Origin: Cyanobium sp. FGCU6
Lineage (GTDB): Bacteria > Cyanobacteriota > Cyanobacteriia > PCC-6307 > Cyanobiaceae
Assembly: GCA_024958655.1 (NCBI GenBank)
Contig: JANWUR010000013.1
Span: 35,043-99,042, forward strand
Direction of reading: 5' to 3'
Length of the DNA stretch: 64,000 nucleotides
Positions 59,056 to 64,000 of this stretch are shown here, piece by piece. The notes under the pieces are model-generated. The model made no database searches. It worked only from the letters and a program-made list of their open reading frames with translations, and had not been told where the DNA came from. Position numbers and translations under genes: made by a program. The first letter of the stretch is position 1. Every line of letters starts with the position of its first letter.

Positions 59056-60027
59056 ATGACCAACCCGAACCAGCCGCCGGGGCTGATCCAGCGCTACCGC
59101 GAGGAGCTGCAGTCCCGCCACTACGCGCGCCGCACGGTGAAGACTTACGAGCAGTGGCTGCGGCGGTTCCTGCGGTTTCATGGCATGCGCCATCCGCGGG
59201 AGATGGGTAGCGCGGAGGTGAACGCTTTTCTCACGCACCTGGCGGTGGAGGGTCAGGTGAGCGCCTCCACGCAGAACCAGGCCCTCTCGGCGGTGCTGTT
59301 TCTGTACCGAGAACTGCTGGATCGGGATCTGAATCTGGAGGGAGTGGTGCGTGCCCGCAAGCCTCAACGGTTGCCGGTGGTGCTGACAGAAGAAGAGGTA
59401 CGATCTGTCTTGCAGCGGCTCGAAGGAAGCGAAGCGCTAGTAGCTGGGCTGCTGTATGGGAGTGGGCTGCGATTGATGGAGGCTCTGCGGCTGAGGGTGC
59501 ATGACGTGGATTTCAATCGGCAGGAACTGACCGTTCGTAATGGAAAGGGCGGAAAAGACAGACGCACAATGCTTCCAAAACAGCTATCGAAGAAGCTAAA
59601 GATCCATCTTGAGAAAGTACGAACTGTACACAAACGAGACTTAATAGATGGATGGGGTGCGGTGCAACTTCCCTTCGCCTTAGCGCGTAAGTATCGGAAT
59701 GCTGCAACTGAGTGGGGCTGGCAATGGGTATTTCCCCAGCATCGGCGCTGGCAAGATCCAACCTCAAAACAACAGGGACGCCATCATCTCGATCCGAGTT
59801 TGATTCAGAAATCGGTGCGGTGCGCTGTGCTGGCAGCTGGTATCAGCAAGCCGGCCAGCTGCCACAGCTTGCGTCATTCTTTTGCCACACACCTATTAGA
59901 GAGAGGACAGGACATTCGCACAATTCAGGAATTGATGGGGCACAAGGACCTAAAAACAACAATGATCTATACGCACGTTCTCAATCGCGGACCATTGGGT
60001 GTCGCCAGCCCGGCAGATTTCCTGTAA
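59056..60027 (+). CDS. intI: Integron integrase
   Basis: [22 protein letters not shown], integron-specific insertion [42 protein letters not shown]. Confidence 0.97.
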
Positions 60028-60189
60028 AGAAATGGAAAAGAGCTGCCGTTGATACCGGGTCCGTATAAAATCCCAACCAAGCCACTGTCCAATCCCTCAG
60101 ACCTACTGCGCCGCATGCCCTTTGGAGCAAGTTGCCGGCTTCCCATCGGCCGCTTAGGCCGACAGCGGCACCCACCGCAGAGCGGATAC

Positions 60190-60216
60190 CGGACCCGTCC
60201 ATACAGCGTTCGGAGG
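60190..60216 (+). other. Candidate attI core (crossover G|TT at 60208/60209)
   Basis: GTTCGGAGG (60208-60216) is the exact reverse complement of CCTCCGAAC (61527-61535) at the first attC. Confidence 0.65.
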
Positions 60217-60419
60217 ACAGGCCGGATGCACCAATGCCCGATTTTGGGTAAGAAACATGCACAACCGCCGCATTTCAGCCGGAACATAAAGCTGTGTTTG
60301 GAGTTTGCAAGCATCTTGGCGCTGTGTGCACTATTGTGAAGGTTAATTGCCGAGCGTTGACTTTGCGAGTACAAATAGTTTAGCTGTTCCCACAAGCAGC
60401 AAGCTAATTTAAGAACAAA

Positions 60420-61262
60420 ATGAACTTCACTGTTTCCACTTTGCCTCTTCTCGCTGTTTTCGACGTGGGCATCGTAGGGGCCGTATTGGTTCCCTTTCTG
60501 TTCAAGCTGGTTGGCGCGGTTGCCCTTTGGATTGTCGGCGGTTGGCTGATCAACTTCGCCCTGCGGTTGCTGCGCCGCGGCCTCAACCAGGGCACCCTCG
60601 ACCCAACTCTGATCAGTTACCTGCTGAACATCCTGGGCGCACTGCTGCGGGTGGTGTTGGTGGTGGCTATCCTTGGCTTCTTCGGCATCGAAACTGCCAG
60701 CTTCGCCGCCCTGCTGGCCGGTGCCGGCGTGGCAATCGGTGCGGCCTGGAGCGGCATGCTCGGCAACTTCGCCGCCGGGGTGTTCCTGCAGATCTTCCGG
60801 CCGATCAATGCCGGAGACTACATCGATGGTGGTGGTGTGGAGGGCACGGTGGACGAGGTGGGCATGTTCGTGACCTCTATTACCTCACCGGACAACGTGC
60901 GCCACTATGTGGGAAACGCCAAGCTCTTCGGCGACACGATCAAGAACTACTCCGCCAATCCCTTCCGCCGCGTTGAGCTGGTGGCCCAGCTCGACAACAG
61001 CGCCGATGTGGGCAAGGCCATCAGCTTGCTTAAGGAAGGGATCAAGCAGGTGCCCAACCAGGTGGAGGGCATCGAGGCCGACGTGGAGGTGCTGGAATTC
61101 AGCGAGCGTGGGCCGCGGCTGGCGGTGCGACCCTATACCCACACCGCCAACTACTGGCAGGTGTACTTCGACACCAACCGGATGATCGTGGAGGTGCTGG
61201 GCAAGGCGGGATTCCCGGTGCCCCGCATCCCGGTGGCGATGCAGGGTAATTCAGCTAACTGA
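60420..61262 (+). CDS. mscS: Small-conductance mechanosensitive channel (cassette 1)
   Basis: GAGVAIGAAW...NFAAGVFLQIFRP...GD, N-Y-S, RRVEL, VYFD, FPVP. Confidence 0.92.
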   Translation: MNFTVSTLPLLAVFDVGIVGAVLVPFLFKLVGAVALWIVGGWLINFALRLLRRGLNQGTLDPTLISYLLNILGALLRVVLVVAILGFFGIETASFAALLAGAGVAIGAAWSGMLGNFAAGVFLQIFRPINAGDYIDGGGVEGTVDEVGMFVTSITSPDNVRHYVGNAKLFGDTIKNYSANPFRRVELVAQLDNSADVGKAISLLKEGIKQVPNQVEGIEADVEVLEFSERGPRLAVRPYTHTANYWQVYFDTNRMIVEVLGKAGFPVPRIPVAMQGNSAN

Positions 61263-61528
61263 CACATCTGCGATGCATACACGGAAATGCACCGCAAAGA
61301 CATTTGTGAGCGCCAGGTGGTTTTGGCCAATAAGCGCTCTTCCTCTGCGTTCCCAAATATTGGCATAAGTGTGTGATCATCTATGGTTGCGGTAGAAATA
61401 TTAGATTGTTTTGCTGAAAAGCTAAGTTTATTACGGAAGATCGCTTTAGATTCTAGTCAAGATGCCTCGCTTCTGCTGTGGAGACTTTGATTTACTCCAA
61501 TTATGATAACTAAATGACTGCTGAAACC

Positions 61529-61615
61529 TCCGAACATCCAGATGCAGAAGTCGGGAGCAAGGGCTGGTTACCAAGGTGATACGTCCCAGCCCGCTTCTGA
61601 TCTGGGGCGTTAGCC
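61529..61615 (+). repeat. attC site 1 (87 bp)
   Basis: TCCGAAC..catccagatGcagaagtcggg..cccgcttctgatctgg..GTTAGCC; extrahelical G in L''. Confidence 0.92.
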
Positions 61616-61789
61616 TTACGCAAAATCCATGCGTCCGGCTGTCCTGAGTTCCGAGCCACGAGATCAAATAGCTGCTGGAGATCATGTTCCATTGATTAAT
61701 TGGCTTCATTCTACTCTGCAAGCCTCTGACATTATTGGATGCTGTTGTCAGCTCAGAAGCCTTGGAGGATACTGTATGTGAACTCATGC

Positions 61790-62261: not shown

Positions 62262-62276
62262 TCGAAATGAGACGAA

Positions 62277-62361
62277 GGCTAACATCCAGATGCAGAAGAC
62301 GGGAGCAAAATGCATCGACTATGCCCACGTCTCTGCCCGCTTCTGATCTGGAGCGTTCGGT
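62277..62361 (+). repeat. attC site 2 (85 bp)
   Basis: GGCTAAC...same arms...GTTCGGT; AAGGCTAAC complements the cassette entry GTTAGCCTT at 61609. Confidence 0.92.
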
Positions 62362-62395
62362 GGGCTAGAGTCACCCAGGAATGGCCCACGCGTAA

Positions 62396-63112
62396 GTGAC
62401 TGAAGACCCAAAATTGCGATATGCACGCATCCCTTGCTCAAACTGCGGAGGAGATCCTAGAAATCACGAAGTCTTAAGTGAGCATTGCGACGAGTGGGAG
62501 ATTGAAGATGCCGGAATATATGGGAAAAGTGCACATCAAATACTGAAGTGTGCAGGATGCGACTCCATCAGATTCCGTAGCTTTTATTGGAATAGCGAAG
62601 ATATTGACTGGCAGACTGGCGAGCCAGAAGTCACGGAAAAGATATATCCTGAAAGCATAGGCAACGCAAGGCAAGGCATTGATTTGCAGGAGCTTCCCGA
62701 TCCTGTAGCTCGAATTTACAAGGAGGCCGTCATTGCATTCAATGCAGGTGCGCTCATCCTTGCCGGTGGCGGCCTGCGTGCTGTAGTAGAGGCGATGTGC
62801 CAGGACAAGAAAGTGAAAGGCAAAAACCTCGAAGTCAAGATTGAGAGCCTTGTCGAGCAAAAGCTATTAGCGAAACCGCAAGCCGATCTCCTGCACGAAG
62901 AAAGGTATTTAGGAAATTCTGCTTTACATGAAATTGTAACGCCCTCTTCGCAGGATGTTAATGATGGATTCGACATAATTGATAGTCTATTGACTACTAT
63001 CTATATTCTTCCAGGCAAGGCTGATCGACTTCGCGCAAAACGAGTAAGGCGACCCCAGCTTAAACAAACCGCCGAACAACCAGATGCAGAAGACGGGAGC
63101 GGGGATGGCTGA
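62396..63112 (+). CDS. DUF4145 (HEPN-like) protein with N-terminal CxxC Zn motifs (cassette 3)
   Basis: CSNC, CAGC; IYKEA...LRAVVEAMC...LEVKIESL...ERYLGNSALH. Confidence 0.85.
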   Translation: MTEDPKLRYARIPCSNCGGDPRNHEVLSEHCDEWEIEDAGIYGKSAHQILKCAGCDSIRFRSFYWNSEDIDWQTGEPEVTEKIYPESIGNARQGIDLQELPDPVARIYKEAVIAFNAGALILAGGGLRAVVEAMCQDKKVKGKNLEVKIESLVEQKLLAKPQADLLHEERYLGNSALHEIVTPSSQDVNDGFDIIDSLLTTIYILPGKADRLRAKRVRRPQLKQTAEQPDAEDGSGDG

Positions 63113-63155
63113 TGAATTCCAAGGTTCTGCCCGCTTCTGATCTGGAGCGTTAGCT
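63071..63155 (+). repeat. attC site 3 (85 bp)
   Basis: GCCGAAC...same arms...GTTAGCT; CCGCCGAAC complements the entry GTTCGGTGG at 62355 with one G:T pair. Confidence 0.92.
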
Positions 63156-63207
63156 GGGACTGTGCAGACACTTATCTGTGTATCATAGTAAGAACTGTTT
63201 AAAGCCA

Positions 63208-64000
63208 ATGCAGAAACTCAGGAAAGTTGCAACTGACTTCTTTTATGGCATCTTTGCCCAATGGCTCACTCCTTTTGTCGTTGCATCTATCGGTTTCGCA
63301 TATAATAGCCTGGCAAGTGTGAGTTTTAGAGTGCCATTGAGGATTGCCGTCTGGATATTAGCCCTTGCATCTGTATTGCCCCTAGCAAGATACTTAAGAC
63401 AGTGTCAATGGAGACACAAACAGATACGCTTCTTGAAGGAAGACTCAGCGACAAGATCCCTTGATCTCTTTATTGATATTATACAAAGAGAAGTTTGGCT
63501 AGCGATGAGAGTGCCAGAAAATGGGTTTCATACTGTTTTGCCCTCGTTCCAAAAGTATATTTTACTGAGAAAGCAACCTATGCAAATAATTCTGGTTGAT
63601 TGCATGCGCATCGCAGCAAGAGCCAAGAGCCTCGCTGAACATTCACAAGTATTGTCACAGGTAAGTCATTATCTAGAGTTTATGCGATTCTACAAGAAGA
63701 TGGCCGTTCCCAGAATCGTAGCTCAATGTCTTCTGTATTTCAAAACCTTTAAGGATGATCTTGATATCATACTAATTTATGGCCATAGCACGGTCGTACT
63801 TGAGGCTGTTGTTGCTGGTTATCGTGAGTCACGCTTCACGATTGTTGTCGTTGAGGACAAACAATACCATAAAGAAAGCTTAAATGAACATCAGATTGTC
63901 TGCAATAGGTTGAAGTCAGAAAAAGTCGTATACCATCTAATTGCTTATGATCAGACAGACGACCTTTTGAAAGGTACAAGATCGATTAGATGCAAGATAG
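63208..64000 (+). CDS. 2TM + eIF2B/ribose-1,5-bisphosphate-isomerase-like protein (cassette 4), 3'-partial
   Basis: 264 codons without a stop, read manually; two N-terminal TM helices; DIILIYGHSTVVLEAVVAGYRESRFTIVVVED...EHQIVCNRLKSEKVVYHLI. Confidence 0.7.
   Translation, partial: MQKLRKVATDFFYGIFAQWLTPFVVASIGFAYNSLASVSFRVPLRIAVWILALASVLPLARYLRQCQWRHKQIRFLKEDSATRSLDLFIDIIQREVWLAMRVPENGFHTVLPSFQKYILLRKQPMQIILVDCMRIAARAKSLAEHSQVLSQVSHYLEFMRFYKKMAVPRIVAQCLLYFKTFKDDLDIILIYGHSTVVLEAVVAGYRESRFTIVVVEDKQYHKESLNEHQIVCNRLKSEKVVYHLIAYDQTDDLLKGTRSIRCKI

Follow-up and report, generated by a model that had tools for sequence, protein, structure and literature searches.

In the sedentary chromosomal integron of Vibrio cholerae, the integrase gene intI diverges from the cassette array, which is very large, and in class 1 integrons the attI1 site measures ~65 bp. 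Integrons of Treponema are transcribed towards attI, and a Synechococcus sp. IntI was grouped in published trees with those of Treponema, Kuenenia, Chlorobium and Blastopirellula (PMC3607928). This inverted integron-integrase group, of the Treponema denticola type, goes back to Boucher 2007 (as cited in PMC4889954 and PMC3607928). Integrons were reported from Cyanobacteria by Cury et al., who also discussed the inverted group and found it paraphyletic (PMC4889954), while a Cyanobacteria-specific attC model comes from Ghaly et al. (PMC8352920). Here we analyzed a 64,000-nucleotide stretch of DNA (the window) and found at 59-64 kb what we take, with a probability of about 0.88, to be a complete chromosomal integron of this 'inverted' layout in a Cyanobium-like freshwater picocyanobacterium. 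This integron is probably active.

Since NCBI records of homologous proteins carry the name integron integrase and a Synechococcus IntI has been placed with the inverted group in published work, the element is of a known kind, and the window integron is a further example of a known, already annotated element. Its putative membership of the inverted clade is taken from that published work. Among the 120 matches listed, IntI homologues are 76-96% identical and many are named 'integron integrase', the closest ones from Cyanobium or Cyanobacteriota metagenome-assembled genomes (MAGs). The integrons of Cyanobium sp. PCC 7001, Synechococcus sp. CBW1107 and Cyanobium MAGs share with the window a 323-aa IntI that is 78-92% identical (80% in PCC 7001 and 78% in CBW1107; the Aphanothece IntI is 82% identical) but differ from it in cassette content. 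In PCC 7001, an attI-like module and two attCs likewise come after intI, on its strand, in an array of two cassettes, although these attCs match the window family weakly (26-27 bits). With the V. cholerae integron (VchIntIA and its VCR, or V. cholerae repeat, attCs), the locus has in common the integrase fold and catalytic set, the chromosomal location, one dominant attC family and toxin-antitoxin cassettes. It differs in its layout, in attCs of 85-87 nt with two extrahelical bases of which the first is rarely G, and in the size of the known array, with 4 cassettes in the window and 2-9 in relatives.

An integrase gene read towards its cassettes

A preliminary description of this DNA, made from the sequence, had claimed an intact IntI followed by cassettes in inverted orientation, and both claims hold. 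The IntI open reading frame (ORF) of 323 aa, which is also the length of most homologues, scored 461 bits with the NCBIfam model TIGR02249 'integron integrase' (cut-off 265) and far below the cut-offs of the XerC and XerD models, and it contains the Pfam domains PF13495 and PF00589. Its residues 13-320 align with residues 8-317 of VchIntIA (2A3V; E 2.4e-90), a full-length alignment that spans the IntI-specific insertion (190-235) between patches II and III. Along with this extra domain, every residue of the R-K-H-R-H-Y catalytic set is present (R135, K160, HxxR and H...Y, in the motifs GLR, GKGGK, HSLRH (HxxRH) and GH...Y). No protein identical to the exact IntI of the window is on record. The locus thus combines the two features of a complete integron, an integron-type integrase gene and attCs within a few kb of it, here 1.5-3.1 kb from the intI stop (Table 1). 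As in the inverted group, intI, attI and all cassettes have the same orientation, on the + strand. Of the 14 related loci (L numbers below) that carry an IntI homologue (64-90% identity), 13 share this layout, with attCs downstream of intI on the same strand; in L031, the remaining one, the sequence continues for only 343 nt past intI.

The cassettes provide a further test of the reading. Since crossover at G↓TT puts the six bases after G in the next cassette, the entry GTTxxxx of each cassette should complement its own exit box xxxxAAC. Entry GTTs are found at 60208, 61609 and 62355, exactly where the preliminary description had placed them, and exit boxes begin at 61529, 62277 and 63071, which is 2 nt to the right of its figures. 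The complementarity that it had claimed for each cassette is full in cassette 1 (GTTCGGA/TCCGAAC, 7/7) and cassette 2 (GTTAGCC/GGCTAAC, 7/7), and reaches 6/7 in cassette 3 (GTTCGGT/GCCGAAC). We extended the comparison to 47 neighbouring attC pairs of the window and related loci, taking the 4 nt after GTT and the 4 nt before the next AAC. The mean match was 3.02/4, compared to 2.13 (sd 0.11) in shuffled pairs, where the observed value was reached in 0 of 10000 trials, and short cassettes nearly all matched at 4/4. Together these data place the cassette boundaries at G↓TT, with entry complementing exit. Three of the four cassettes first described are complete, whereas the fourth is cut by the window end.

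Cassette 1 encodes a mechanosensitive channel of the MscS type (Pfam MS_channel_2nd, E 5.9e-16; NCBIfam MscS, E 4e-34), and cassette 2 a HicAB toxin-antitoxin pair. The ORF of cassette 3 has its stop inside attC3; its DUF4145 protein, for which no identical protein is on record, matches weakly the single-gene anti-phage defence model PADLOC PD-T7-4 (E 2e-7). The ORF of cassette 4 had no family match in NCBIfam/Pfam profile searches.

Table 1. Features of the window integron and of the phage-borne array L133 (positions of L133 features are those of L133).
Feature	Positions	Strand	Basis or score
intI, integron integrase, 323 aa, tyrosine recombinase	59056..60027 (ATG to stop)	+	TIGR02249, Pfam, VchIntIA alignment
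attI region, ~180-nt conserved module (183 nt in the window), intI stop to crossover G↓TT (60208-60210)	60028..60210	+	11-spacer alignment
Site A of attI module	60048-60070	+	conserved box
Central box GCTTAGGCCGACA of attI module	60152-60164	+	conserved box
Site B of attI module, ends AGC-GTT	60184-60210	+	conserved box
Cassette 1, 1401 bp, MscS-type mechanosensitive channel ORF 60420-61262, attC1	60209..61609	+	Pfam, NCBIfam
attC1, 87 nt	61529-61615	+	family covariance model 85.3 bits
Cassette 2, 746 bp, hicA 61852-62052 and hicB 62049-62261 toxin-antitoxin, attC2	61610..62355	+	HicA_toxin E 2e-21, HicB_lk_antitox E 1e-14
attC2, 85 nt	62277-62361	+	family covariance model 89.6 bits
Cassette 3, 794 bp, DUF4145 ORF 62396-63112, attC3	62356..63149	+	DUF4145 E 1.7e-13
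attC3, 85 nt	63071-63155	+	family covariance model 83.9 bits
Cassette 4, at least 851 bp, ends with the window; ORF from 63208 (at least 264 aa), GC 0.41	63150..64000	+	entry GTTAGCT at 63149
L133 portal	2251-3825	-	
L133 attI-like head	3949-4112	+	
L133 attC 1	5200-5290	+	
L133 attC 2	6072-6156	+	
L133 attC 3	7981-8061	+	
L133 sigma factor	8060-8746	-	
L133 large terminase	8769-10391	-	E 1.9e-75
L133 primase	11550-13328	-	

attC family and attI module

The three attCs had been described as sites of 85-87 bp with near-identical arms that differ in their loops, and pairwise identity is indeed 93-98% in the arms and 33-40% in the loops. The arm motif CCAGATGCAGAAG occurs exactly three times, once in each attC; with up to two mismatches it has 12 matches against 2.27 expected, a count reached in 0 of 100 shuffles. 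By using a covariance model built from 139 family members, we found in the 64 kb only these three sites, all on the + strand (84-90 bits, E ~1e-23 to 5e-25) and as high-scoring as any in the family, and no attC in the 59 kb upstream of intI.

Among the 139 members, the consensus boxes GYCTAAC and GTTAGRC fit RYYYAAC (R'') and GTTRRRY (R'), and the sites measure 84-90 nt, within the attC range of 57-141 nt (PMC5027507). The consensus fold consists of 6 bp, an unpaired base, 6 bp, a second unpaired base, 3-4 bp and a loop that varies; 98.1% of its cells are paired. Changes on both sides of a pair were found in 15 cells, compared to 2.0 in shuffles (0/500 as high), mainly from CCAGAT/ATCTGG to CAAGAT/ATCTTG. 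Counted from the beginning of R'', the two single-base bulges lie at columns 16 and 23, with six pairs between them, on the R''-L'' arm that carries AAC in the + strand. Nivina et al. described the canonical extrahelical bases, at 16 and 23/24 and separated by a 6-bp stem, as lying on the top-strand arm that carries AAC, and opposite AAC on the bottom strand (PMC5027507). Since position, spacing and arm of the bulges all match this description, the attC register is canonical, and since the bulges are on the arm carrying AAC in the + strand, the + strand (the cassette coding strand) is the top one and the minus strand the bottom one. The minus strand folds with R and L boxes and two extrahelical bases, the features on which the preliminary description had made its reading depend. 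In 73% of sites, the bottom strand has T as its second extrahelical base. We also considered whether a first bulge other than G is tied to an integrase residue (R in the window at the position of VchIntIA W157), and dropped the idea, as IntI1, with its G-bulge sites, also has R (R168).

The attC repeat is lineage-wide, as had been proposed. A scan of species-representative genomes for its exact 3' arm GCCCGCTTCTGATCTGGNGCGTT (22 bases; a 23-nt pattern containing one N) gave more than 116 stretches, nearly all of them from Cyanobium, Synechococcus, Vulcanococcus or 'Prochlorococcaceae'. The proposed homogeneity stands for the three sites of the window, a small sample, but not for the lineage at large, where attC types are mixed. 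For instance, L131 (IntI 91% identical), with about nine cassettes that end at a convergent gene, mixes strong and weak matches to the family. An array possibly much longer than the part in the window had also been proposed; of the two relatives read over longer DNA, L131 has these nine or so cassettes and PCC 7001 has two, and attC types are mixed in both. The family is also found in MAGs labelled Actinomycetota, Tabrizicola, Mesorhizobium, Chitinophagaceae, Pirellula and Acidibacter (L048, L030, L108, L091, L015, L040, L089). The 'Actinomycetota' label of L048, a 2.5 Mb contig, is probably wrong, since the contig has 79-81% nucleotide identity with the flank of a Cyanobium integron. Wrong labels or mis-binning are likely for these MAGs in general, and those other than L048 may reflect cross-phylum transfer.

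Between the intI stop and the crossover lies a conserved module that we take to be attI. In an alignment of 11 intI-linked spacers, conservation ends at GTT, and homology of the window to L116 and L075 stops at 60210-60213. The module holds three conserved boxes, with sites A and B 129-134 nt apart. The boxes are alike (those of L087 read CTTAGGCGGA, CTTAGGCGGA and CTTGGGCGGA) and echo the TTAGGC of the R box, and the box nearest to the crossover, taken with GTT, resembles an L-spacer-R simple site (TCCATAC AGC GTTCGGA). By analogy with L, R, DR1 and DR2 of attI1, the three boxes are candidate IntI-binding sites of a long attI. Both attI1 and the module have several repeated boxes upstream of the GTT crossover; however, the window module spans ~180 nt instead of ~65 bp, and the box sequences are unrelated. 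A pairing of sites A and B as a giant hairpin was examined and rejected, as the sites give a better alignment when taken as direct repeats that have a palindromic core; in L071 the cores of sites A and B are identical, not complementary. L031 (13-372) is the only locus with an attC upstream of intI. A second intI 3' end and a site A are found downstream of its attI, which suggests a tandem or rearranged platform.

Cassette mobility, integrase-less arrays and phage-borne copies

The MscS and HicAB cassettes of the window were found elsewhere, with homology ending exactly at G↓TT, which supports their mobility. The MscS cassette is 98-99% identical in the metagenome contigs L001 and L002, where homology covers 60204-61613, that is the cassette limits. 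The HicAB cassette, with identical HicB, is present in L122 (an integrase-less array), in L123 and in L131, where it is the last of nine cassettes, and L105 matches 61593-62357 at 92%. Moreover, contigs of four metagenomes break at 60210 relative to the window. In run X13, seven different contigs continue past this position with unlike sequence, and contigs in three runs join 60210 to an attC located ~2.07-2.11 kb downstream. As contigs diverge at 60210, co-occurring strains differ in what follows the attI crossover. In L001 (1-90) and L002 (40-133), the MscS cassette is preceded not by attI but by a second, unrelated attC type (…CGAGTGGACAGGCC…GCCTGCCACTCAGGGGCAGC-GTT), so that the cassette pool of the lineage is not homogeneous.

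A profile of the attI module detected 37 copies among related loci (e.g. L075:5662-5842, L076:4625-4806 and L095:3693-3859). Sixteen of them stand behind an intact intI and about 20 have no adjacent intI. The latter are almost always 5' of attCs on the same strand, and several retain the last 15-40 nt of intI, which indicates that these are decayed integrons. On contig CAVXWZ010000002, a complete integron and an orphan attI head lie ~230 kb apart in one genome.

The attC family of the window was also observed in a picocyanobacterial (pro)phage lineage (L133, L007, L023, L060, L070 and L134), as an integrase-less array that starts with the attI-like module and has the portal gene on one side and the genes for the sigma factor and large terminase on the other. 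In L133, which is the viral genome (UViG) 3300034063_001922 of IMG/VR, the backbone has a GC content of 0.69 and the array of 0.47-0.52 (Table 1). L007, L023, L060 and L070 carry an array at the position of that of L133 in related backbones, L060 coming from the isolate Synechococcus sp. HJ21-Hayes, and homology between these phages ends or resumes at crossover GTTs. A 333-aa ORF before the first attC of L133 was examined as a possible IntI and is not one. Phage-borne arrays are known for other hosts, including a cluster of attC sites lacking integrase (CALIN) that starts with a Shewanella-type attI and is flanked by phage genes (Qi et al. 2023, PMC9892861). The likeness to these CALINs concerns the related loci, not the window, and consists in integrase-less, attI-headed arrays inside phage structural modules; cyanobacteria or cyanophages are not mentioned in that work (PMC9892861).

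A broader model, which we put forward tentatively and consider somewhat less probable than its failure, is that freshwater picocyanobacteria and their phages share one cassette pool. The near-invariant attC and the ~180-nt tripartite attI head would form a portable platform, found in complete integrons, in chromosomal integrase-less arrays and in phage portal-terminase arrays and served in trans by a single chromosomal IntI, while the inverted layout would let intI transcription reach the newest cassette.

Expression, chromosomal setting and rival explanations

The steps by which the integron may work are taken from the established integron mechanism. Each attC hairpin would be recognised by IntI as a folded minus (bottom) strand, through its paired AAC/GTT box, the unpaired spacer of 2 x 3 nt, the stem of 6 + 6 + 4 bp and the flipped-out bases at 16 and 23. 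IntI would cut between A and C of the bottom-strand AAC, which corresponds to G↓TT of the top strand. Circular cassettes would be inserted at 60208-60210 by recombination between attI and attC, and excised by recombination between two attCs.

Because transcription of intI heads towards attI without a predicted terminator in between, the cassettes are probably co-transcribed with intI or transcribed from a start inside the 180-nt spacer. Searches around intI and attI for a terminator, a sigma-70-like promoter and a cyanobacterial LexA box gave nothing above chance. Lake metatranscriptome contigs of related strains cover intI, and one stretch from intI to the spacer (59414-60144) crosses the intI stop. 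Other contigs (60065-60217) run from the spacer across attI into unlike first-cassette sequence. These RNA contigs fit read-through from intI or a start inside the spacer, which is suggestive only. Contig depth peaks over 60115-60210 (in run X23, 374 in one 66-nt contig, compared to ~40 over intI); this could be a transcription start, a stable RNA or the summed signal of many strains.

The composition of the last 5 kb is sharply unlike that of the remaining window, with a GC content of 0.69 over 1-57000, 0.57 in the integrase gene, then 0.56, 0.50, 0.49 and 0.41 in the four downstream units. The 59 kb upstream of intI contain housekeeping genes (homoserine dehydrogenase, TrmJ), and more than 12 kb of this flank are colinear with Cyanobium MAG loci at 68-77% nucleotide identity. 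Given these genes, this colinearity, the GC content of 0.69 and the cyanobacterial origin of the nearest IntIs, the host is Cyanobium-like and the location chromosomal, neither plasmid nor transposon, as expected for a sedentary chromosomal integron; the preliminary description had likewise spoken of a chromosomal integron in a picocyanobacterium. An independent metagenome contig (58580-59550) spans the junction of host flank and intI, and the metagenome runs that carry the sequence come from freshwater, lake, biofilm and wastewater.

Several features of the flank were recorded in addition. A search of 57-64 kb for known RNA families found none at E up to 1. Upstream of intI, an inverted repeat of 7 bp (GTTGCGA N20 TCGCAAC, ~58988-59021) was discarded, as it is not conserved in L116, whose homology begins at 59049. 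Just upstream of intI, a frame at 58665-58874 resembles by eye a ribbon-helix-helix (CopG-like) protein; its first ATG/GTG/TTG comes after the predicted first strand, so this may be a pseudogene, or translation may begin at a rare codon. The segment 57468-57971, with a metagenome depth of ~250 compared to ~10 in its flanks (run X1), has a 71%-identical homologue at the far array end in L098 (positions 1-303) and is a small gene that tends to adjoin these arrays. Further upstream, a 71-nt direct repeat (42402-42472 and 45527-45597, 99% identical, 3.1 kb apart) reads by eye like the N-terminus of RuvC. In contig L121, RuvC and SufE adjoin the homoserine dehydrogenase gene, and the copy at 45527-45597 is probably the start of the real ruvC, since it lies ~370 nt before the point where L121 starts inside the RuvC gene. 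Repeats of 27-nt period at 610-2055 correspond to nine-residue units, probably within the gene of a large secreted protein, and from the DNA we guess that they are of the glycine/aspartate-rich calcium-binding type.

Several observations weigh against the reading as a complete chromosomal integron of the inverted layout. The covariation is thin, as there is hardly any variation in the family and the search pattern was the 3' arm itself. On the bottom strand, the first extrahelical base (position 16) is C in 45%, T in 29% and A in 17% of sites, and the usual G in just 8%. The unpaired central spacer is 2 x 3 nt instead of 5-6 nt per arm, with 2 nt (AT or AA) and 3 nt (AGC or GGC), as pairing (CCA/TGG) takes up three positions that would otherwise belong to the spacer; AAC and the first bulge are still 8 nt apart. 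Fold energies are similar on both strands (-15 to -17.7 kcal/mol on the minus and -15.8 to -19.6 kcal/mol on the plus strand), and wobble-type mismatches, 18 of the top type and 6 of the bottom type (~14 and 10 expected), do not favour the bottom strand. The promoter and LexA searches were negative, the RNA contigs have no direction and may include DNA, and the far end of the array lies beyond the window, which stops inside cassette 4.

The attC-like repeats could in principle be ordinary intergenic palindromes, either REP-like (repetitive extragenic palindromic) or terminators, beside a chance Xer-like recombinase. Every repeat is a hairpin after an ORF, and the fold z-scores are modest (-1.6 to -2.9). 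Yet the hairpins are not followed by a T-tract, the recombinase exceeds the cut-off of the integron-specific model but not those of XerC/D, the AAC/GTT boxes are conserved with bulges in canonical register, cassette entry complements exit, and homology between contexts stops at G↓TT, which makes this explanation hardly credible. The integron might instead not be sedentary, and be carried by a phage or an integrative island inserted in the chromosome. Such a carrier would be in line with phage backbones (L133, L007, L060, L070) that contain an attI-like head and arrays of the same attC family, with the intermediate GC content (0.65) of the 2 kb upstream of intI and their small ORFs without assigned family, and with a flank that is not conserved in L116 (IntI 90% identical). 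However, the phage-borne arrays are without intI while the window locus has it, housekeeping genes reach ~56.6 kb, no attC is present in the 59 kb upstream, and no phage or transposase gene was seen adjoining intI in the window; we regard this possibility as very improbable, though less so than the palindromes.

The best of the rivals, in our view still an unlikely one, is a fossil integron, in which platform and cassettes are real but this copy is inactive, its array being kept by vertical descent and by the HicAB addiction module. The lack of a detected promoter or SOS box near intI and attI would suit a fossil, and decay is seen in relatives, in the ~20 integrase-less arrays of which several keep an intI end. 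Against it stand the full-length intI ORF with every catalytic residue, attCs that score as high as any in the family, co-occurring strains that differ exactly at the attI crossover, and intI-like RNA in lake metatranscriptomes. Taking these observations together, we retain the complete chromosomal integron of inverted layout as our reading of the locus.

For annotation, this means the correct call of a known element. For integron biology, which rests almost wholly on Vibrio and the clinical class 1-3 systems and in which integrons with an integrase read towards the array are barely studied, the locus and its relatives provide a natural data set, with an intact IntI, a compact attC with a variable first flipped-out base, a long conserved attI and cassettes in several lake-metagenome contexts. 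It is also a tractable case, since close homologues are carried by cultured Cyanobium and Synechococcus strains. Questions that could be addressed in this way are how cassettes are expressed when co-directional with intI, which of the attI boxes bind IntI and whether phages borrow the integrase of their host. The long conserved attI head, and the fact that it also occurs in arrays that lack an integrase or are borne by phages, are the most promising leads.

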